Assembly (NCBI GenBank): GCA_964629655.1
Contig: CAZVQU010000002.1
Coordinates: forward strand, 162,814 to 226,813
DNA length: 64,000 nucleotides
Direction: 5' to 3'
DNA from: an uncultured Planctomycetia bacterium
Lineage (GTDB): Bacteria > Omnitrophota > Gorgyraeia > Duberdicusellales > 4484-171
Part shown: piece after piece, positions 2,894 through 29,335 of the stretch
Position numbering within the stretch: the stretch's first letter is position 1
Layout of the letters: each line of letters begins with the position of its first letter
Notes under the pieces: model-generated
The model's database searches: none
Told to the model about the DNA's origin: nothing
The model's input: only the letters and a program-made list of their open reading frames with translations
Translations under genes and position numbers: made by a program

Positions 2894-4567
2894 CTATATC
2901 TCTTCAGTCACCCTTAAAACTTCAGCTAGAGTAGTTATTCCCTTTAGGACTTTCTCCATTCCGTCATCATACAAAATTCGCATACCCAATTCTATCGCTT
3001 TTTTCTTGATCTCGTTGGCTGATGCCTTGGCTGCAACCATATTTCTGATTTCATCATTTACTACCAATAACGCATAAATTCCTATCCGGCCAAGAAATCC
3101 TGTATTTTTACATGCTCGACACCCCTTACCCTGATAAAATTTTGCATTCAAGCTCAAGTTTAAATCTTTACGCACTTCATCTGAAGGTATATGTTCTTCC
3201 TTACACTTAGGGCAAATTACCCTTACCAAGCGTTGAGCCAATATAGCGATAATTGACCCTGAAACCAAAAAAGGTTCAATGTCCATGTCTAATAGACGAG
3301 TTAAAGCGCTAGGAGCATCATTGGTGTGAAGAGTTGAAAAAACCAAATGTCCGGTTAACGAAGCTTGAATTGCTATTTCAGCAGTTTCTTTATCGCGAAT
3401 TTCACCGACCATTATAATATCCGGGTCTTGCCTTAAAATGTTTCTTAAACCATTGGCAAAGGTTAAACCAGCCTTAGGGTTGACCTGAGTCTGACGAATT
3501 AAGGGCAATTCATATTCTACCGGGTCTTCAATAGTAATTATATTCTTCTCCATGGAGTTTATAGTGGCTAGAGCTGAATAAAGGGTAGTGGTTTTCCCTG
3601 AACCAGTAGGACCGGTAACAAGAATTATCCCGTTGGGGTGCCTAATCATCTTACCAAAGATTTCCAAGACTTTATCAGAAAGCCCTAGCTCAGCTAATCC
3701 CAGAAGCACTGAAGTCTTATCAAGAATTCTAATAACGATATTCTCGCCATGAATAGTAGGAAAAGAAGAAATTCTTAAATCTAGGCTCTTATTCTCTACT
3801 TTAAGCTGCATTCTCCCGTCTTGAGGCTTACGGGTTTCAGCAATATCCATGTCTGAGACTACTTTAATTCGTGAAGCTAGAGCACTCTGCAGATGCTTAG
3901 GAAACTCCTGGATCTCATGCAAGATCCCATCAATGCGATAACGGACAAGAACCTTCTTTTGATCGGGCTCAATATGGATATCACTGGCTCCATCTTTAAC
4001 TGCCTGCATTATAATTAGATTAACTAACTTAATTACCGGAGCATCAGCAGCGATTTCAATTAACCCTTTAGGTTTCTTTTTTCCCTTCTCAGCTGCCTCT
4101 TTTGTCAACCCTTCAACCAGACTATCAACACTTCCTAAAGTACCATAATATTGATCGATAACCTTCTGTATCATATCAGGAGTTGAGAGAACTGGATCAA
4201 CTGCCTCAGCACCACTTTTCTTCCTGAGATCATCAATTGCGGTAATGTCTTGGGGATCTACCATGGCCACAGTTAAGGTATTCCCTATTTTAAACAAAGG
4301 TACAGCTTTATGTTTTTTAGCCACATTTTCAGGAACTAACTTTACCACTTCGGAATCAATTAAATAGTCATTTAAATCTATAAAAGGAATGCCTAAAGAA
4401 CCAGCCACAACCCTGACGATGTCAATCTCAGAAACAAATCCTAACTTCTCTAAGGCTTTCTCTGTAGGCATACCGGTTTTATGAACCTCTTCCTTAGCCT
4501 TATCAAGCTGCTCCTTAGTAATTATTCCTTTCTCAACTAATAACTCGATGTTTAGTTTTCTAGCCAT
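2894..4567 (-). CDS. pilB: Type IV pilus assembly ATPase PilB/GspE family with N-terminal T2SSE_N (MshEN-like) domain
   Basis: Walker A VTGPTGSGKTTTLYSAL, Asp box, His box, C-terminal tetra-Cys (CPKCK...CRAC) typical of GspE/PilB; 557 aa. Confidence 0.85.
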   Translation of the reverse strand: MARKLNIELLVEKGIITKEQLDKAKEEVHKTGMPTEKALEKLGFVSEIDIVRVVAGSLGIPFIDLNDYLIDSEVVKLVPENVAKKHKAVPLFKIGNTLTVAMVDPQDITAIDDLRKKSGAEAVDPVLSTPDMIQKVIDQYYGTLGSVDSLVEGLTKEAAEKGKKKPKGLIEIAADAPVIKLVNLIIMQAVKDGASDIHIEPDQKKVLVRYRIDGILHEIQEFPKHLQSALASRIKVVSDMDIAETRKPQDGRMQLKVENKSLDLRISSFPTIHGENIVIRILDKTSVLLGLAELGLSDKVLEIFGKMIRHPNGIILVTGPTGSGKTTTLYSALATINSMEKNIITIEDPVEYELPLIRQTQVNPKAGLTFANGLRNILRQDPDIIMVGEIRDKETAEIAIQASLTGHLVFSTLHTNDAPSALTRLLDMDIEPFLVSGSIIAILAQRLVRVICPKCKEEHIPSDEVRKDLNLSLNAKFYQGKGCRACKNTGFLGRIGIYALLVVNDEIRNMVAAKASANEIKKKAIELGMRILYDDGMEKVLKGITTLAEVLRVTEEI

Positions 4568-4637: not shown

Positions 4638-5759
4638 TTACGTGACTTCCGAGCTAGGTCTTGCCAAAAAGTACCCCTGTCCGGCATCAATACCGTAATC
4701 AACCAAGACCTTTAACTCCTCTTCTTTTTCAATCCCCTCGGCAATAGAAATTATGTTACTCTGCCTACAAAAACTAATTATCGCCTTAAGGAGGTTTTGC
4801 TTAACTGGATTGTCTTGGATGTCCTGAATAAGATGTCTGTCAATTTTTATAAAATCAGGCTTAATCTCAACTATTAGATCTAAAGCAGCATATCCGCTTC
4901 CAATATCATCAATAGAAGTTTTAAATCCCTTTTCCTTAAAAAATTTCAAAGTCTTTAGGAAACCAGCGAAATTATTAATTGCTGTACGTTCAGTCAGCTC
5001 TAAAACGATATTCTCAGCTTGAGCATAGCTTTCGTAAAATGAACTAAACTCTTTGAATTTTTCATCTTGAATAAGATAAGGGCTGACATTAAAAAAGGTT
5101 AAACTTTCCTTGGCCTTATCTCCTAACTTAGTTAGAGCCTTTTTATGACACATTATCTCTAAGTCAAAAAGCATACCTAGGTGGAAAGCAGTATCAAATA
5201 AAACTTCCGGGTTTGGGAAATAACTTCCCGGTAACGGCCGACTCAAGACTTCTCTACCTAAAAGACCTTGAGGGCTTAAGTAAAATATGGGTTGAAAATA
5301 AGGATTAACCAGCTCACCATTGATAATCCCCTTAACTTCATTGATTGCCTTAGCTTTATCTTTTACTCTCTCCTCAAATGGCTGATTACGCCGCAGGACT
5401 GCCTCTAGCCGTGCAAACAACTCTTCAATATCAAAAGGCTTAGTAACATAATCATCGGCACCAGTATGTAAGCCCTCAACCTTATCTTGAGAAGCATCTT
5501 TACCGGTAAGCATAACAATAGGAATTCGACTCGTTACCTTATCTGAGCGTAGCCGCCGGCAAACCTCGTAACCACTCACATCAGGCAACACCAGGTCTAG
5601 GAGAATAAGGTCGGGTGCATCTTTGACCCTTTCAAAAGCCTCTTCGGCAGTAGAAGCTACATTAACTATATAATCACGGGAATGAAGACGCATGCTAAAG
5701 ATATCTACAAAGTCACGATCGTCATCAACTAGAAGGATTCGTTTCTTTACTGTAACCAC
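4638..5759 (-). CDS. Response regulator with receiver + EAL (c-di-GMP phosphodiesterase) domains
   Basis: N-terminal REC (ILLVDDDRDF...DLILLDLVLPDVSG...MLTGK); C-terminal EAL-domain motifs ELTER, DDIGSGYAALD, IKIDRHLIQ, EGIE, QGYFLARP. Confidence 0.8.
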   Translation of the reverse strand: MVTVKKRILLVDDDRDFVDIFSMRLHSRDYIVNVASTAEEAFERVKDAPDLILLDLVLPDVSGYEVCRRLRSDKVTSRIPIVMLTGKDASQDKVEGLHTGADDYVTKPFDIEELFARLEAVLRRNQPFEERVKDKAKAINEVKGIINGELVNPYFQPIFYLSPQGLLGREVLSRPLPGSYFPNPEVLFDTAFHLGMLFDLEIMCHKKALTKLGDKAKESLTFFNVSPYLIQDEKFKEFSSFYESYAQAENIVLELTERTAINNFAGFLKTLKFFKEKGFKTSIDDIGSGYAALDLIVEIKPDFIKIDRHLIQDIQDNPVKQNLLKAIISFCRQSNIISIAEGIEKEEELKVLVDYGIDAGQGYFLARPSSEVT

Positions 5760-5769
5760 ATTAACCTCT

Positions 5770-6141
5770 TTATTGTTCTCCTAAAAGTTCCTTAATTTTT
5801 GAAAGTAATACCTGAGGCTCAAAAGGCTTTGTTATATAGGCATCTGCTCCTACCTGAGCACCCATCTCCTTATCTGAAGCTTGAGCCCGAGCAGTAAAGA
5901 GAATTATCGGAATGCTCTTATACTTCTCATCAAACTTAAGCATCCGGCAGACCTTATACCCGTCTAATTTGGGTAGCATTAAATCCAGCACTATCAAATC
6001 GGGGTTCTCAGCCCTTGCCTTATCTACAGCTTCCTGCCCATCGTAAGCAGATAAAACTTTATATCCACTAGCTTCAAGCCGCATCTTTAGCATCTCAACT
6101 AATTGAACCTCATCGTCAACCACTAAAATTCTTTTTGCCAT
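5770..6141 (-). CDS. CheY-like single-domain response regulator (paralog 4 of 4)
   Basis: 123 aa REC-only protein; DDE..D..K signature (VVDDE, LDLMLP, ILFTAR...KPF). Confidence 0.85.
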   Translation of the reverse strand: MAKRILVVDDEVQLVEMLKMRLEASGYKVLSAYDGQEAVDKARAENPDLIVLDLMLPKLDGYKVCRMLKFDEKYKSIPIILFTARAQASDKEMGAQVGADAYITKPFEPQVLLSKIKELLGEQ

Positions 6142-6165
6142 TATAGTATTTTCCTCCGGTACAGG

Positions 6166-6528
6166 CTAAACGTATCTTTTAATAAAATCTAATAACTCTT
6201 TTGTGTCAAATGGTTTGATGAAATAATCTGTTGAGCCTAAATCGTGTGTCTTAAACATAGTCTCTGTATCTCCTTTTGCCGTAAGCATCACTACCGGTGT
6301 ATGCTGAGTTTCTAAATCAGCTCTTAACCTGCGTAATACCTCAAATCCATCCATCTTTGGCATCATGATATCTAAAACAATCAGATCAGGCTTAAGGTCT
6401 TTGGCTTTCCCTAAGGCCTCTTCACCATCAGAGGCAGTACTGACTTCATAGCCTTCAGCTTCCAACCGCATCTTTAGCATCTCAACTAATTGGACTTCAT
6501 CGTCAACCACTAAAATTCTTCTTGCCAT
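6166..6528 (-). CDS. CheY-like single-domain response regulator (paralog 3 of 4)
   Basis: 120 aa REC-only protein; N-terminal 22 aa and ~70 nt nearly identical to paralog 4. Confidence 0.85.
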   Translation of the reverse strand: MARRILVVDDEVQLVEMLKMRLEAEGYEVSTASDGEEALGKAKDLKPDLIVLDIMMPKMDGFEVLRRLRADLETQHTPVVMLTAKGDTETMFKTHDLGSTDYFIKPFDTKELLDFIKRYV

Positions 6529-6545
6529 AACTACTCCTCACTTAA

Positions 6546-6917
6546 TTATTTCTTCAAAACCTTATCGACCATTAGCAATAACTTATCAGCCTCAAAAGGT
6601 TTAGCAATAAAAAGATTATCACCTATTTCTTCACTACCTTGGTTCTCGGTCATCCCATCAGCTAAGCAAGTTAAAAAGATAATTGGGATTTTAGAAAATT
6701 GATCGTCTTCCTTTAAAGCCGCACCTACCTCATTGCCAGCCATCTTTGGCATTACGATATCCAAGATGATCAAATCAGGCTTAAGGTCTTTAGCTTTCTG
6801 TAACCCCTCTTCACCATCAAAGGCAGTAATGACTTCGTAACCGTTGGCTTGAAGGCGCATCTTTAGCATAGTTACTAATTGAGGTTCGTCGTCAACTACT
6901 AAAACTCTTTTGGCCAT
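6546..6917 (-). CDS. CheY-like single-domain response regulator (paralog 2 of 4)
   Basis: 123 aa REC-only protein. Confidence 0.85.
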   Translation of the reverse strand: MAKRVLVVDDEPQLVTMLKMRLQANGYEVITAFDGEEGLQKAKDLKPDLIILDIVMPKMAGNEVGAALKEDDQFSKIPIIFLTCLADGMTENQGSEEIGDNLFIAKPFEADKLLLMVDKVLKK

Positions 6918-6942
6918 TTCACTCTCCTTATGATTTATTATA

Positions 6943-7314
6943 CTATACCTTTAAGCACTCGCTAATCTTATTTAGAAGGTCATCAGCGTCAAAAGGCTTC
7001 ACAACTAGATCATCAGCCCCGGCTTCCCTACACTTCTCGACTAAATCTTTATTGCCAGAAGCAGTAACCATGATTATTGGAATATCCTTTGCTTGGGCAT
7101 CGCTTTTAAGCTGACGGCAAAGTGACCAACCGTCAAGTTTGGGCATTACTATATCAAGAAGTATGAGGTCAGGTTTGCCCTCCTGAACCTTCTCTAATCC
7201 TTCCTCACCATCAGAAGCAGAAATCATCTCATAGCCGCTAGCCTGAAGTCGCATCCTCATCATGGTAACGAGTTCTTCCTCATCTTCAATAAGTAATATT
7301 TTCTTCTTACCCAT
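6943..7314 (-). CDS. CheY-like single-domain response regulator (paralog 1 of 4)
   Basis: 123 aa REC-only protein. Confidence 0.85.
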   Translation of the reverse strand: MGKKKILLIEDEEELVTMMRMRLQASGYEMISASDGEEGLEKVQEGKPDLILLDIVMPKLDGWSLCRQLKSDAQAKDIPIIMVTASGNKDLVEKCREAGADDLVVKPFDADDLLNKISECLKV

Positions 7315-7328
7315 GACTCCTCCTAACG

Positions 7329-10061
7329 TTATGCCTTGCCGGATAAACCAAGATTATCCAATAACCCTTGGCTGCTATTAGCCTGGTCAGGATATGTGGT
7401 TAAACCAGCTTCTAATTTGATGCTTCCGGATAAATTCTTACCCCGTAAATAATCTTTTACTATTTCGATTAACCTGTTTTCAATCCTTTGAGCATTGTCG
7501 TTATCACAAGCAGTCAGCAAAACAGCAACTCCCTGAGAAATTTTAAACGCTTTATCATTTTCTCGACGAAAAGTACTCTTTAAAGCCTTCTCAAGATCAC
7601 TGAGTGCTGTCTGCAGCTGATTATCGGTAAGTTTTTTCTTTATTTTATCAGGAAAAGTTAGGCAAATCTTGATAAGGGAAACCTTTGATTTTTCCATCAC
7701 CGCTTCGTTCACCGCTCTGTCAAGATGCTTCTTAAGAAACAGTCCGGAAACATACTTGGGCAGGGTGAAGATGAATTTTGATCCCTTACCAAGCTTACTT
7801 TTAACCTTTATGGTGCCGCCATGCTCTTCAACTAAGTTTTTGGTAATTGCTAAACCTAGCCCGGTACCTTTTGCGCCCGGCCCGGCTACCCGCCCGAACT
7901 GCTGAAACTTAGTAAATACTTTAGGTAAATCATTCTTGGATATCCCCTGACCGGTATCAGAAATTGAGATTTCTACATCGTTTTTGCTATCTATTAACTC
8001 AATTTTTATTCTGCCTTTCTCAGAAGTATATTTTATGGCATTAGAAACAAGATTATCCAAAACCTGAGTTATCTTGTCAGGATCAACAGAAATGTTTACC
8101 GGGATATCCGGTACAGAACAGTCTAAGTCCTGTTCTTTCTTTTTGCTCTCTATCTTCCACTCCTCACATATAGTTCTTACCATCTGGCGAATATCTACCA
8201 GAGATTTCTCCAGCTTTAACTTCCCGGCTTCAATCTTAGAAATATCCAAAAGATTATTTATAATCCTTGCCAAACGATCAATGTTTTCGCTGCCCATTTT
8301 AAGGATATTTTTCTGTTTCTGGTTCACTTTGCCCGGTATCTCGTCTGCAATCAAAGACACCCCTTCCTTGATTATAGACAATGGGGTACGTAACTCATGG
8401 GAAACGGTACTAATAAACTCATCTTTAAGCTTCTCAACTTTTTTACGTTCAGTAATATCCTTAGCTATATGCACTGCGCCGACAATCTTTCCTTCTTCAT
8501 CAAAAATTGGTGACACAGTAATTAAAAGAGGTATTCCGATGTGTGGGTCGTCAACTTCTTCACTGTGAGCCTTTCCGGTTTTCTCCATAGCTTGGAAAGG
8601 ACATCCCGGCCAAGAAAAATTTTGTCCATGAACTACTTCATGACATTTTTTGCCTATAATCTCCTCCGGCTTAGCCTTCATTGCTGCAGCAAAAGCTTTG
8701 TTAACCTTAACAATAGTAGAGTCTCTATCTTGGATAAAGATTAAGTCGGTTATGGAATTAAATGTTCTTTGCCATTCTTCGGCAGCTTTCTTTATTGAAC
8801 TGTCAGCTTTTTTACGTTCGGTAATATCCCGAACCGTTGCCTGGACAAACTCTTTATCTCCAATCTGCATTTTAGTTAACAAAACTGTAGCTGGAAATTC
8901 ATCTCCACTTAATCGCTTATGTTGCCATTCAAAGAAGTTTGAACCGGTTTTTAACGCCTCTCCTATCCTCACCTTAGCTTTTACCTCTGATTTTTGTCCG
9001 TCGGGCTGATACTCTGGAGATAATTTCCCCGGCCCTTTTGATATAAACTCGGCTTCATCTTTAGCACCGAACACCCTAATTGTGGCCGGGTTTCCAGAAA
9101 TAAACTTCCAATCTGGAGGAGCTAAGACCATAATCGCATCCATGGAAGACTCATAAAGTGTTCTGAATTTTTCCTCGCTTTCGGTTAAAGCTACTTCGAC
9201 CTGCTTACGTTCAGCAATTTCTCTGTTCAAAGCAACTATAGAGATAGTGCTATTTTTTAAATTTTCTGTCATCTTATCAAAAGCCCTTGAAAGTTGACCG
9301 ATTTCATCTTTTGAGCCAGTGCCTACTTTATAATCTAAATTGCCCCCTCCGATTATCTCCATCCCCTTACGTAAAGCCTTCATCGGATTAGCAATTGTTC
9401 TAGAAACAAACATACTTACGCCCAACACTGACATCAAAAATAAAAGAACGGTATAGAAAACCCTGTATTTGCTGTGATGGACTGAATTCTGCACATTTGT
9501 TACTGCCTCATTTAATGTCAGATCAGAAGCTATGATTGCTTTATTGCGCTTTAGACTCATTGTGTCAACATAAGCCTTAAGGCCACCTGCATAAATATCC
9601 TTGTTCTCCCAGTAAGCATCACTCTCCAAAATCTTAGCTGCTTCTTCTCCTTCTCCGGCATCAACGAGCTTAATCGACATATGTTCCATTTCCACCAGAG
9701 CTATGTTTGCTTTGTCGACGCTTGCAAAAAATTTTTTGCCGGACTGATCTATTCTTGCAATAGCTTGTTTTATTGTCTTGTCTAACTTGGGCTCAATATC
9801 GTAATAGCGTTGTTTCCATTTTTCATCTCCGGTAAATGCATAATTTCGCGCAGATTGAGTTAAAACTTCGTCATGATATCGGATTGATTTAGCCAATCCA
9901 TCCATAAACGTTGTCTCGGCTATTGCATAAATATCTTCTGGTATATCTCTATTTAACGGTTTAGCAATCTCATTTAGTTGACTTATGGTTACATAACCCA
10001 TAACCGCAACTAAAAAAGTAACCAACGAAAATCCTAGCAATAATTTCTGTCCTATTCTCAC
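7329..10061 (-). CDS. Sensor histidine kinase: periplasmic sensor domain, TM, HAMP, two PAS domains, HisKA, HATPase_c, plus ~170-aa uncharacterized C-terminal domain
   Basis: TM helices flanking a ~170-aa extracytoplasmic region; HAMP (IANPMKALRKGMEIIGGGNLDY); PAS with Cys-rich CHEVVHGQNFSWPGCPF; H-box HELRTPLSII; G-boxes DTGQGI and GTGLGLAITK; 910 aa. Confidence 0.85.
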   Translation of the reverse strand: MRIGQKLLLGFSLVTFLVAVMGYVTISQLNEIAKPLNRDIPEDIYAIAETTFMDGLAKSIRYHDEVLTQSARNYAFTGDEKWKQRYYDIEPKLDKTIKQAIARIDQSGKKFFASVDKANIALVEMEHMSIKLVDAGEGEEAAKILESDAYWENKDIYAGGLKAYVDTMSLKRNKAIIASDLTLNEAVTNVQNSVHHSKYRVFYTVLLFLMSVLGVSMFVSRTIANPMKALRKGMEIIGGGNLDYKVGTGSKDEIGQLSRAFDKMTENLKNSTISIVALNREIAERKQVEVALTESEEKFRTLYESSMDAIMVLAPPDWKFISGNPATIRVFGAKDEAEFISKGPGKLSPEYQPDGQKSEVKAKVRIGEALKTGSNFFEWQHKRLSGDEFPATVLLTKMQIGDKEFVQATVRDITERKKADSSIKKAAEEWQRTFNSITDLIFIQDRDSTIVKVNKAFAAAMKAKPEEIIGKKCHEVVHGQNFSWPGCPFQAMEKTGKAHSEEVDDPHIGIPLLITVSPIFDEEGKIVGAVHIAKDITERKKVEKLKDEFISTVSHELRTPLSIIKEGVSLIADEIPGKVNQKQKNILKMGSENIDRLARIINNLLDISKIEAGKLKLEKSLVDIRQMVRTICEEWKIESKKKEQDLDCSVPDIPVNISVDPDKITQVLDNLVSNAIKYTSEKGRIKIELIDSKNDVEISISDTGQGISKNDLPKVFTKFQQFGRVAGPGAKGTGLGLAITKNLVEEHGGTIKVKSKLGKGSKFIFTLPKYVSGLFLKKHLDRAVNEAVMEKSKVSLIKICLTFPDKIKKKLTDNQLQTALSDLEKALKSTFRRENDKAFKISQGVAVLLTACDNDNAQRIENRLIEIVKDYLRGKNLSGSIKLEAGLTTYPDQANSSQGLLDNLGLSGKA

Positions 10062-10239
10062 AATATATACTTTAGTTTTTTAAATAAGCTTTTTAACTTC
10101 TCCAATTAAGTCTGACAAATCACTGGTCTCGGGGCAATAATCATCAACCCCCCAATTTTCTAGCCTTTGCTGCATCTATGGCTCCACCGGAAGAAGAAAA
10201 ACCCTTAGTAACCTATTGTATATAGGCAATTTAGGCTAG

Positions 10240-11475
10240 TCAAGGCTTTTTGCCTTTCCGTTTAGAAGCTAACTTGCCTCCGGCCCGAAAGATTGCCTCC
10301 CGGCCGAATTTATCCTTTATCTTATCAATAGCCTTATGCATTCTCTCCTGCTTTTCTTCCTTGCCTTGGTCAAAAAGGGTAACCTGAACTTCACCCTGAG
10401 TGAAATTTGAGACCTTGACTCCCACTAAACGCACCCTCTTACCCTTACGGTTAAACTTATCTAAAAGCTCTTTTATAGTCTTATAGATCGTATCAATAAA
10501 ATTAGTCGGCTTATCCAGGGTCTTAGCCCGGGTAAAGGTCAAAAAACCCTCCAACCTTATCTTTAAGGTAATAGTTTTTCCCTTAAAGCCCTGTTGGCGC
10601 AGGCGACCGGACACCTTCTCGCAAAGGTTAATCAAAGCTGCATAAATTATCTTTCTATCCCCTGTGTCCTCAGCAAAGGTATATTCATTACCTACTGACT
10701 TTGTCTCATCTTCTACTTCTACCTCTCGCTCATCTATACCATTAGCCAAGGTCCAGAAGTATTCACCATTTTTACCTAATATCTGCCCTACTTCTTGCAA
10801 ATCCTTCTTGGCTAAATCACCTATGGTCTTAATTCCTAAATCATTAAAGATAACTTTACTCTTCTTGCCCAATCCGGGAATCTTATCAATATCTAAAGGC
10901 CAGAGAAAATCAAGAACTTTATCTTGACCAACCTCAACTAAACCATCAGGCTTATCAATATCTGAGGCTATTTTTGCAGCCATCTTAGTAGGAGCTAAAC
11001 CAACTGAAGCAGTTAGCTTAGTCTTCTCGTTTATTCTAGACTTTAATAACCTACAGGTCTCTCGGGGACCTCCAAAGAGATGATGACTTCCGGTTATATC
11101 TAAAAAAGCTTCATCAACGCTTATCATCTCAACCTTAGGAGTAAACTCATGGAAAATCTCGTAAATCTCATCAGATACCTGGCTATACTTCGCAGAATCC
11201 ACTGACAGGAATATACCCTTAGGGCACTTCTTATAAGCCGTAGATATTGGTTGACCGGAGTGTATGCCAAACTTTCTGGCTTGATAAGAACAGGTTGAGA
11301 CAACCCCCCTACCCTTGCCCCCCTTAGGATCAGCTCCGACTATTACTGGCTTGCCAATAAGAGCAGGATTATCCCTCTGCTCTATGGCTGCGAAAAAAGC
11401 ATCCATATCTACATGTAAAATATAGCGTATTTTAAGAATAGGGTTTATTGGGCTAATTTTAGCCTTTTTTGCCAT
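10240..11475 (-). CDS. dinB: DNA polymerase IV (Y-family translesion polymerase)
   Basis: ILHVDMDAFFAAIEQRDNPALIGKPVIVG... catalytic palm/fingers motifs; 411 aa. Confidence 0.85.
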   Translation of the reverse strand: MAKKAKISPINPILKIRYILHVDMDAFFAAIEQRDNPALIGKPVIVGADPKGGKGRGVVSTCSYQARKFGIHSGQPISTAYKKCPKGIFLSVDSAKYSQVSDEIYEIFHEFTPKVEMISVDEAFLDITGSHHLFGGPRETCRLLKSRINEKTKLTASVGLAPTKMAAKIASDIDKPDGLVEVGQDKVLDFLWPLDIDKIPGLGKKSKVIFNDLGIKTIGDLAKKDLQEVGQILGKNGEYFWTLANGIDEREVEVEDETKSVGNEYTFAEDTGDRKIIYAALINLCEKVSGRLRQQGFKGKTITLKIRLEGFLTFTRAKTLDKPTNFIDTIYKTIKELLDKFNRKGKRVRLVGVKVSNFTQGEVQVTLFDQGKEEKQERMHKAIDKIKDKFGREAIFRAGGKLASKRKGKKP

Positions 11476-13934: not shown

Positions 13935-15128
13935 TTAATTCTTAAGGGCTGAGTTAGAAGACTTGACTCTCTGGACACTTAAAGCCTCTTGTATCTGCTG
14001 ATCACCGACAAAACCCAGTTCTTTAAGGACCTCACCTAATACTATTCCCCTCTTCCAATGCAGATTTAAAGCCTCATCTAATTGTTCATAAGAGATTGCC
14101 TGGTTCTGAAGCAATATCTGACCCAAGGGTTGGTAGGGATAGGCTGGGGTCTTCTTATTAACTTGGGGTACCTTGTTAGCAAAAGAAACCGAATCCCTTC
14201 GCTCAGCCATAAATATACTCTCGGGAATTGTTTTTAAAAATCTCTTTATCTCGGCAATCCGTTCATTGACCTCGATAATACTCTTGACCTTAGAAGAATC
14301 ATCTTTGTTGAACACAGCAATAGACACACTCATCAACGGTGACTTCTTTATCTTCCGGGCCCGATCCCTAGCCATAACAAAGCCCTTGGTACGGTCACTA
14401 GCTGAATAGTGGAAAGGGGTAATGTTGTCAAAGAAATTAATAAAATTCTTACAGACCCTCTCATATTTATCAGGAGTAGTAATAAAAGCAAAGTCATCAC
14501 CGCCGATATGACTGATAAAATCGTCACCATTACCGAAATCTTTCAAGGTTGTAAATAATAAATAAGCGGTCTGCAAAATTACTCTATCCCCCTTGCGATA
14601 TCCATAAACGTCATTAAAAGACTTAAAATTATCGATATCTACGTAAGCAAAAGAAAAAGGCATACCAGAGCTTAACCTCTCCTTAAGCGTATCTTCAAGA
14701 ATCTTTCCTCCAGGAAGGCCGGTTAAAGGGCTAGCATAAATACTATGTTTTGCCCTTCTTACTGACATCTCAATTCTTATCCGTAAATCCAGAGGATCTG
14801 GCGGTTTAATAAGATAGTCATCTACCCCCTGTTTAAGATTTAGAAGTTGAGCTCGCAAGTGACGCTTATTAATTAAGGTTATTACCGGAATGAAAGCAGT
14901 GGTGAAGTCTTTTTTTAGATTTCGACAGATATCAAGCTGTTGTTTGCTGGCTGTTTGAACATCAACCACGATAACATCAGGAGAGACTTTCTTGATTTCT
15001 TCAATGTCAGAGTCTGGTGAAGAATCTTTCAAGAAAACTTCATACCCCCAGCCATCAAAGCAAAAACTAAGTACATCCTTAAGCTTGCTATCTGAAGACA
15101 CGATCAAGATCTTCTTAATTTTATCCAT
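13935..15128 (-). CDS. Three-domain c-di-GMP signalling protein: atypical receiver + GGDEF-type cyclase domain (GGDDF variant) + C-terminal T2SSE_N/MshEN-like domain
   Basis: N-terminal REC-like fold with SSDS replacing the acidic DD pair; GGDEF domain with YGYRKGD and HIGGDDFAFI; C-terminal LGEVLKELGFVGDQQIQEALSVQ matches the MshEN/T2SSE_N c-di-GMP-binding repeat. Confidence 0.7.
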   Translation of the reverse strand: MDKIKKILIVSSDSKLKDVLSFCFDGWGYEVFLKDSSPDSDIEEIKKVSPDVIVVDVQTASKQQLDICRNLKKDFTTAFIPVITLINKRHLRAQLLNLKQGVDDYLIKPPDPLDLRIRIEMSVRRAKHSIYASPLTGLPGGKILEDTLKERLSSGMPFSFAYVDIDNFKSFNDVYGYRKGDRVILQTAYLLFTTLKDFGNGDDFISHIGGDDFAFITTPDKYERVCKNFINFFDNITPFHYSASDRTKGFVMARDRARKIKKSPLMSVSIAVFNKDDSSKVKSIIEVNERIAEIKRFLKTIPESIFMAERRDSVSFANKVPQVNKKTPAYPYQPLGQILLQNQAISYEQLDEALNLHWKRGIVLGEVLKELGFVGDQQIQEALSVQRVKSSNSALKN

Positions 15129-29262: not shown

Positions 29263-29335
29263 TGCGCCCGGGCCGACTCGAACAGCCACATCAGCCTTAG
29301 GAGGGCCGCGCTCTATCCTGTTGAGCTACGGGCGC
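29263..29335 (-). tRNA. tRNA-Arg (anticodon CCU)
   Basis: 73-nt cloverleaf found by eye: acceptor GCGCCCG/CGGGCGC, D-arm GCTC-AACAGGATA-GAGC, anticodon arm CGGCC-CUCCUAA-GGCUG (CCU), 4-nt variable loop, T-arm GGCTG-TTCGAGT-CGGCC, discriminator A, no encoded CCA. Confidence 0.85.

Follow-up and report, generated by a model that had tools for sequence, protein, structure and literature searches.

The 64,000-nucleotide (nt) stretch analyzed here (hereafter the window) comes from an uncultured Omnitrophota bacterium and encodes, on its minus strand, a sensor histidine kinase followed by four stand-alone receiver genes (REC1 to REC4), a REC-EAL response regulator and type IV pilus genes. Comparison of these sequences with related loci suggests, with a probability of roughly 60%, that they constitute a branched two-component pathway in which one kinase feeds many receivers to regulate type IV pili and cyclic di-GMP (c-di-GMP). 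The series kinase, REC1, REC2, (REC3), REC4, REC-EAL, PilB, PilC and pilin is a conserved Omnitrophota operon. Its four stand-alone receivers are anciently diverged, non-redundant families and not recent copies of one another, and REC3 is a mosaic gene whose 5' end is REC4-like, whose middle is REC2-like and whose 3' half is similar to a paralog from a different locus.

The list of open reading frames (ORFs) and Pfam searches revealed nine consecutive genes on the minus strand from 10061 to 1232, running from the kinase to the pilin. The sensor histidine kinase (7329-10061, a 910-residue ORF) contains transmembrane, HAMP, two PAS, HisKA and HATPase segments and ends in a degenerate GGDEF-like tail. 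It is followed by REC1 (6943-7314, 123 residues), REC2 (6546-6917, 123 residues), REC3 (6166-6528, 120 residues) and REC4 (5770-6141, 123 residues). All four were assigned by their ORFs and PF00072 matches, REC1 and REC2 also by their orthologs and family clades, REC3 by segment identities and triplet tests, and REC4 by more than 100 homologs and their locus contexts. The sequence-only reading that preceded this analysis had placed four REC-only genes of these lengths between a PAS kinase and a REC-EAL protein, and the ORFs and Pfam matches agree with it. Next come the REC-EAL response regulator (4638-5759; Pfam REC and EAL matches, catalytic motifs), a PilB/GspE-type assembly ATPase (2894-4567; T2SSE and MshEN Pfam matches), a PilC/GspF-type platform protein (1673-2887; Pfam and NCBIfam) and a type IV pilin-like protein with an N-terminal methylation motif (1232-1627; Pfam). 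The receiver genes are separated by only 10-25 nt, a GGAG-type ribosome-binding site precedes each of them, and a consensus scan found no terminator-like site on the minus strand between a promoter-like site at 10215-10243 and the pilin gene; the nine genes are therefore read as one operon. The promoter-like site (TTGACT, 17-nt spacer, TACAAT; minus strand), which lies a short distance 5' of the kinase, is the best match in the scan and a consensus match only, hits in this region being no more numerous than expected by chance.

The array is not an assembly artefact. It was found in six contigs that had been assembled independently from six sequencing runs of two run-accession series, and along the 5,424 bp from the kinase to the EAL gene they show 100% identity with the window, an identity that extends to as much as 14.3 kb in total. 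Furthermore, the receiver paralogs differ at about 40% of their bases, so that assembly error could neither create nor merge them. A collapsed or duplicated assembly and a single receiver in related genomes were the two outcomes that would have spoken against the sequence-only reading; neither was seen, since the six assemblies are identical and the relatives carry three or four receivers.

These relatives were identified by exact-protein look-ups of REC4 homologs. A search of the GTDB species representatives with the kinase yielded no syntenic relative, its best match being an Omnitrophota metagenome-assembled genome with 46% identity and no receivers downstream. The window itself is placed in Candidatus Omnitrophota by the names of its homologs and by this closest GTDB kinase match. 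Locus L021 carries a kinase, three receivers, REC-EAL, PilB, PilC, a 122-residue protein, a pilin and a TPR protein, and loci L022, L023 and L024 carry DinB, a dCache-kinase, three receivers, REC-EAL, PilB and PilC. In L025 and L026, DinB and a 1263-residue kinase are followed by four receivers (123, 124, 120 and 123 residues), REC-EAL and pilus genes from PilB to PilM. L019 has a kinase with a GGDEF tail and three receivers, L020 a kinase followed directly by a REC4-type gene, and L111 a kinase, three receivers, a GAF-kinase, PilB, PilC and a pilin, whereas in L112 a REC4-type gene ends a PilM/N pilus cluster. The REC4 family lies in or beside a pilus cluster at seven of the eight distinct syntenic loci, the exception being L019; L020 ends too early for its context to be read. 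Array size varies between three and four genes because REC3, which the window and the L025/L027 lineage possess, is missing from L021 and L022-L024. A metagenome scan for REC3 orthologs returned one true ortholog, L027, the other 79 loci holding generic receivers of less than 50% identity. With L025 and L027 close to each other, the direction in which REC3 sites changed is ambiguous.

The sequence-only reading had proposed recent duplication of the receivers, which is refuted by their relationships across genomes. Over the whole gene, the window paralogs share 54-61% of nucleotides and 44-53% of residues, versus 73-92% protein identity between orthologs. In quartets of the window and L025, sites of the orthology type outnumbered those of the within-genome type by 72 to 4 for REC3/REC4 and by 70 to 9 for REC2/REC3, and a neighbor-joining tree of 31 receivers recovered each of the four families in 200 of 200 bootstrap replicates. 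Positional orthologs of REC1 are found in L021, L022 and L025 (first gene in each) and in L019 (second gene), and those of REC2 are the second genes of L021, L022 and L025. The REC2 family is marked by the signatures MPKMAGNEV, LTCLA and GxNLFIAKPF, the 120-residue REC3 family by HDLGSTDYFIKPFDxKELLxFIKRY and the REC4 family by CRMLKFDEKYK. The last is widespread in Omnitrophota, with more than 100 listed proteins at 64-92% identity.

Against this ancient divergence, REC3 and REC4 are strikingly alike at their 5' ends. Their codons 1-24, which encode strand beta1, the acidic loop and helix alpha1 (REC3, 6457-6528; REC4, 6070-6141; minus strand), are identical at 67 of 72 nt and 23 of 24 residues; Lys3/Arg3 is the single exception, no identical run exceeds 21 residues, and past codon 24 the identity falls to about 55% or less. 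The sequence-only reading had pointed to the two distal copies, which are REC3 and REC4, adjacent and furthest from the promoter, but had taken the N terminus as 22 identical residues and the tract as 6440-6528 versus 6060-6141. As a feature of this pair, the tract clearly exceeds chance. Where both genes encode the same amino acid, the codons are identical in 17 of 20 cases inside the tract versus 10 of 37 outside (Fisher p = 5.6e-5), and, at variable sites, the matches form a longest run that is significant by permutation (p = 0.002).

One explanation is that the receivers are recent tandem duplicates or evolve in concert through ongoing conversion, with the 72-nt tract as a fresh REC3/REC4 conversion. 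Several observations fit this reading. Among 21 REC3-by-REC4 pairs, that of the window shows the highest similarity (67 versus 52-62 of 72 identical), with 5 differences compared with 10-20 in all other such pairs, 9-17 between REC4 and its own orthologs and 10-11 between REC3 and its own. Triplet MaxChi2 tests placed a break at codons 21-23 (p = 2e-4 in both directions), with REC3 and REC4 closer to each other than to their orthologs over codons 1-23, although MaxChi2 is confounded by variation of the evolutionary rate along the gene. Leu18 (CTA) is common to REC2, REC3 and REC4 of the window, unlike the Val or Ile of REC4 orthologs and the Met of REC3 orthologs, and the KAKDLKPDL patch of REC3 is identical to REC2 in both protein and DNA. 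However, recent duplication is excluded by the positional orthologs and the full bootstrap support of the families, and the same 72-nt block is alike at 50-67 positions among all members of the REC2, REC3 and REC4 families in all genomes; window REC4 and L025 REC2, for example, share 64 of 72. The same-genome pairs of L025 (56/72, 16 differences) and L027 (59/72, 13 differences) are not elevated. Synonymous-codon identity in the tract is highest in the window pair (85%, 17/20) and reaches 58-79% between REC4 and its close pilus-locus orthologs; in the four pairs tested (12-15 of 19), the excess of the window pair is not significant (p = 0.16-0.70). A quartet test within the tract had only four informative sites, which split two to two between the orthology and within-genome types, and no more than one uniquely shared derived site was found.

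Because the block is 50-67/72 identical across families and genomes, the 5' likeness of REC3 and REC4 mainly reflects deep conservation of the probable kinase-docking segment and not something private to the window pair; according to the HK853-RR468 complex and the rewiring work of Skerker, Capra and Laub, receivers reportedly dock on the DHp helices of the kinase chiefly through alpha1. On top of this conservation, a modest lineage-specific homogenization by short-patch gene conversion is plausible. The chance that conversion contributed to the tract, as the sequence-only reading had proposed, appears to be slightly below even; in favor of the proposal are the non-random tract and the top rank of the pair, whereas the conservation of the block and the non-significant synonymous excess weaken it. 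As a full account of the array, recent copying or concerted evolution seems somewhat less probable than that. The comparison of the pair with its orthologs covers two REC3-bearing lineages.

REC3 shows a second resemblance, to REC2, which the sequence-only reading does not mention. Its middle tract (codons 31-62; 6343-6438, minus strand) is identical at 79 of 96 nt to 6732-6827 of REC2 (minus strand), compared with 71-74 of 96 for REC3 orthologs; windows of 10 codons show 80-93% identity (p = 0.0035 by permutation). The tract includes an 18-mer shared exactly between 6385-6402 of REC3 and 6774-6791 of REC2, which occurs at only those two sites of the window; 0.01 such matches are expected by chance. 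The segments of REC3 accordingly have different closest relatives. Residues 1-28 best match REC4 (89%), residues 29-62 the REC2 family (74-76%, with window REC2 at 76% and the orthologs of REC3 at 62-68%) and residues 63-120 the protein P0242 (86%), followed by its positional orthologs (72-78%), with REC2 and REC4 at most 31%. At codons 43-46, REC3 encodes K-D-L-K with DNA identical to REC2, whereas REC3 orthologs have D-V-F-N. Because four adjacent replacements all match the state of the neighbor, a short patch converted from REC2 to REC3 is their best explanation, although the direction of change is unprovable with two REC3-bearing lineages. A single REC4::REC2 chimera from unequal crossover was also considered; gene order, 5' end and middle fit, but the C-terminal 58 residues, at most 31% identical to REC2 or REC4 and 72-86% to the REC3 family, do not.

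P0242 is encoded elsewhere on the window's own contig of about 599 kb. Its cluster (L107, 6001-7638) comprises a Cache-PAS kinase, a REC-kinase, the REC3-type P0242 and, after a spacer of 24 nt, a REC4-type gene followed by an RF-1-like and a PilZ gene, and is conserved in another metagenome (L113, 5001-6661). The spacer has the same length as that between REC3 and REC4 of the window and is identical to it at 16 of 24 bases. With the pair present also at L107 and L113, REC3-type plus REC4-type is a recurring two-gene module. A third REC3-family gene, P0247, was seen about 8 kb upstream of the P0242 cluster (L109).

The alpha1 helices of these modules differ between loci. At the pilus locus, both REC3 and REC4 have QLVEM-x-(K/R)-(M/I)-RLEA, and at L107 and L113 both the REC3-type and the REC4-type proteins have ELVKA-(I/L)-(R/Q)-(V/I)-RL; the pattern was found at two loci, each in two genomes. 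The DHp of the L107 REC-kinase departs from those of the pilus-locus kinases just after the His box. In this correlative comparison, alpha1 appears to follow the locus and the back half the family, as would be expected if alpha1 had co-evolved with, or been converted toward, a local kinase that the receivers share. A bolder extension would be that Omnitrophota receivers are two-part modules, with a beta1-beta3 front, alpha1 included, that short-patch conversion from neighbors overwrites repeatedly and a back half inherited with the family. We consider this extension improbable, and no less so its corollary that conversion keeps the receivers of an array matched to their local kinase, with REC3 as a case caught in the act, its 5' end derived from REC4, its middle from REC2 and its 3' end shared with a paralog of another kinase cluster.

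Alternatively, no recombination may have been involved, and the tract would reflect purifying selection on beta1-alpha1 together with nucleotide selection at the gene start (AT-rich codons and little RNA structure, for translation initiation) and strong codon bias in a genome of 39% GC. In different genomes, REC3, REC4 and some REC2 genes indeed start with almost identical sets of 11 codons (ATG GCA AAA AGA ATT TTA GTG GTT GAC GAT GAR), and synonymous identity in the tract across genomes and paralogs is 56-78%, versus 27% outside the tract for the window pair. However, this explanation accounts neither for the top rank of the window pair among the 21 nor for the clustered switch of four REC3 residues to the REC2 state with identical DNA, nor for the co-variation of alpha1 in REC3-type and REC4-type proteins at two loci. 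We therefore regard it as unlikely, and less probable than conversion.

All four stand-alone receivers are full-length PF00072 domains without any other domain (E = 1e-22 to 6e-31; 80.8-107.4 bits versus a cut-off of 30.2 bits; profile positions 1-110/111 covered). In an alignment, Asp10, Asp53, Thr83 and Lys105 (REC4 numbering) are invariant in the four receivers and in the REC domain of REC-EAL; position 9 is Asp in the receivers but Glu in REC1, and REC1 has Leu instead of an aromatic residue three residues ahead of the conserved Lys. Because the acidic pocket, the acceptor Asp, the Thr and the Lys are kept in each, all four can probably be phosphorylated. The residues at D+2/T+2 are V/S in REC1, V/L in REC2, M/K in REC3, M/R in REC4 and V/K in REC-EAL, which suggests that phosphate lifetimes may differ among the receivers; according to work from the Bourret laboratory, M/K and M/R are said to resemble slowly dephosphorylating PhoB-type receivers. 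The best NCBIfam and PDB matches of the receivers are the REC domains of PhoB, PleD, RpaB and YycF. They do not belong to the CheY/PilG/PilH type, the adjoining kinase having a HAMP-PAS-HisKA-HATPase architecture instead of the CheA type, and no CheA, CheW or chemoreceptor gene was found in positions 1-15 kb of the window or in the syntenic loci.

The catalytic motifs of REC-EAL (EVLSR, the N of FFN, ELTE, DDIGSGY, KID, AEGIE and GQGY) all align with those of solved EAL enzymes, and the protein is predicted to be an active c-di-GMP phosphodiesterase. Structure 3sy8, named RocR by its depositors, aligns with residues 88-371, covering the end of the REC and the EAL domain (E = 1.1e-22). The NCBIfam PvrR model matched over the full length with 85 bits versus a cut-off of 580. 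The assembly ATPase scored below both relevant NCBIfam cut-offs (GspE, 621.4 versus 630.25 bits; PilB, 614.4 versus 675.65 bits), so that standard models assign it to neither system, and we favor a type IV pilus over type II secretion because PilM/PilN genes occur in related clusters (L025, L112).

Among the syntenic pilus-locus kinases, the DHp helices are nearly invariant, whereas the sensor parts differ (HAMP-PAS, dCache and the 1263-residue form). Other annotators place the ATG of the window kinase 21 nt downstream, giving 903 residues. Residues 775-901 (7359-7739) are GGDEF-like with a Pfam score of 22.9 bits versus a cut-off of 23.8 bits; the active-site motif is replaced by SQGVA, and an RxxD motif (REND) lies five residues upstream, as in c-di-GMP receptors of the I-site type such as SgmT. 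A similar tail is found in the L019 kinase (RKAD...SGELV) and is absent from the kinases of L020, L022 and L025. A 27-nt direct repeat was also noticed in the kinase gene at 8434-8460, 8803-8829 and 9196-9222, spaced by 369-393 nt. It encodes a (D/E)I(T/A)ERK(K/Q) linker after the HAMP domain and each PAS unit and is a trace of internal PAS-module duplication.

In the branched pathway that we propose, the HisKA kinase would dock on the beta1-alpha1 surface encoded by the 72-nt tract and common to all five receivers, and each receiver would pass the signal through its own divergent alpha4-beta5-alpha5 face to a different partner. By analogy with PilG/PilH and PixG/PixH, these partners may be motor or platform components of the type IV pilus. 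The REC-EAL branch would lower c-di-GMP, and competition for phosphate among the receivers, i.e., a sink effect, might shape the timing of the response.

Several points weigh against this scheme. The cognate pairing is suggested solely by gene adjacency and alpha1 similarity, alpha1 is more divergent in REC1 and in the REC domain of REC-EAL, and REC3-type and REC4-type genes also stand beside other kinases, which leaves room for cross-talk or another partner kinase. The D+2/T+2 pairs of REC3 and REC4, as read from sequence, do not favor a classical fast phosphate sink. Nor is there a visible link from c-di-GMP to the pilus motor. The MshEN motif consists of two tandem 24-residue RLGxx(L/V/I)(L/V/I)xxG(L/V/I)(L/V/I)xxxxLxxxLxxQ units with a 5-residue spacer (PMC5013675). 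PilB of the window has neither a strict nor a relaxed form of it, and it reached 35.0 bits with NF053729, for which the cut-off is 38 bits; its Pfam 'MshEN' match is confined to residues 58-145. Because both the motif and the cut-off failed, a direct route from c-di-GMP to PilB is not supported, and PilB was rejected as the c-di-GMP receiver that would connect the EAL branch to the pilus. The c-di-GMP branch is also not universal, since in L111 a GAF-kinase stands in place of the EAL gene.

Another gene of the neighborhood was noticed in this context. The minus-strand gene at 13935-15128, which is syntenic in L022, encodes a REC plus partial GGDEF protein (motif GGDDF) whose end carries a tandem MshE-type motif at residues 334-386, consisting of two 24-residue near-matches 29 residues apart, and scores 49.6 bits with NF053729 against the same 38-bit cut-off. 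By these sequence criteria, its product is a more credible candidate for a c-di-GMP receptor than PilB.

We consider it very unlikely that the additional receivers are pure phosphate sinks or buffers without targets of their own that sharpen the REC-EAL response: they are several after one kinase and lack output domains, and sinks are an established design (e.g., CheY1/CheY2 of Sinorhizobium) whose concept is in use in the literature, but the distinct C-terminal face of each family is strongly conserved (72-92% identity between orthologs), which points to specific partners, REC3 and REC4 have D+2 and T+2 residues that would suit long-lived receivers, and REC4 remains associated with pilus clusters at loci where another gene takes the place of the kinase or the EAL gene.

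The proposed branched pathway resembles several known systems in part. Multi-CheY systems include CheY1/CheY2 of Sinorhizobium and CheY1-6 of Rhodobacter, and MrrA is a hub receiver. In these, as proposed here, one kinase or pathway addresses several single-domain receivers and phosphate competition shapes the signal, but they are chemotaxis or stress pathways, and the phosphate-lifetime residues of the window receivers appear unlike those of a fast sink. The concept of competition for phosphate among single-domain receivers has been described (PMC5964349). HK853-RR468 of Thermotoga maritima likewise combines a HisKA kinase with a receiver-only partner, and RR468 (3dge chain C) matches REC4 with E = 3e-25; in that structure the docking contacts are reportedly made by alpha1 of the receiver. 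However, it has one receiver per kinase, whereas four or five stand in series here. In Pil-Chp of Pseudomonas aeruginosa (PilG/PilH) and Tax1 of Synechocystis (PixG/PixH), several stand-alone receivers are also encoded with type IV pilus genes, and one kinase feeds antagonistic or branched pilus regulators (PMC10519157, PMC11181946). Those systems have CheA-type kinases, CheW, chemoreceptors and two receivers, whereas the window has a HisKA membrane sensor, no che genes and four or five receivers that are closest in sequence to PhoB/OmpR/PleD-type REC domains. The fifth receiver gene encodes REC plus EAL like RocR and PvrR of Pseudomonas, but it is not an equivalog of either and sits in a pilus operon after four stand-alone receivers. 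SgmT of Myxococcus xanthus is a histidine kinase that ends, like the window kinase, in a GGDEF-like domain with an RxxD motif; its C-terminal degenerate GGDEF domain binds c-di-GMP (PMC3509222). In the window kinase, for which c-di-GMP binding would be putative, the domain score is just below threshold, and the tail is absent from three of the related kinases.

Some further features of the window were recorded. Compared with L022 and L025, the window has some 70-100 nt more between DinB and the kinase. This spacer (10062-10239) was examined as a possible decayed receiver gene, an idea that was rejected: a receiver-like C terminus (...AAKARKLG / VDDYCPETSDLSDLIGEVKKLI*) can be read across one frameshift, without any Pfam match, and may be due to chance or be a badly decayed remnant. 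All 37 ORFs of at least 250 residues in the 64-kb window lie on the minus strand, an unusually uniform orientation. The GC skew is negative in nearly all 500-nt segments of the first 16 kb, positions 1-1000 being slightly positive, and a single tRNA-Arg(CCT) is located at 29263-29335.

Literature searches found no account of this operon and none of conversion between paralogous receivers, and the main text of the principal survey of Omnitrophota is silent on two-component and c-di-GMP systems. A cassette of five receivers before pilus genes, together with a mosaic REC3, is mildly unusual and does not contradict current models. The Omnitrophota have not been cultivated and are mostly ultra-small, and host dependence or predation has been proposed as their way of life (PMC10066038). 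Going beyond that report, it is plausible that their pili are candidates for cell-cell contact, and the conserved five-receiver cassette directly before the pilus motor genes offers a testable handle on the control of attachment. With a constant kinase core and exchanged sensors, and with receivers that share a docking helix and differ in their output faces, the array also provides a test bed for specificity, insulation and phosphate competition. Current concepts would change only if the idea of conversion-driven rewiring were true; in that case, gene conversion would be a means of wiring and rewiring two-component specificity.

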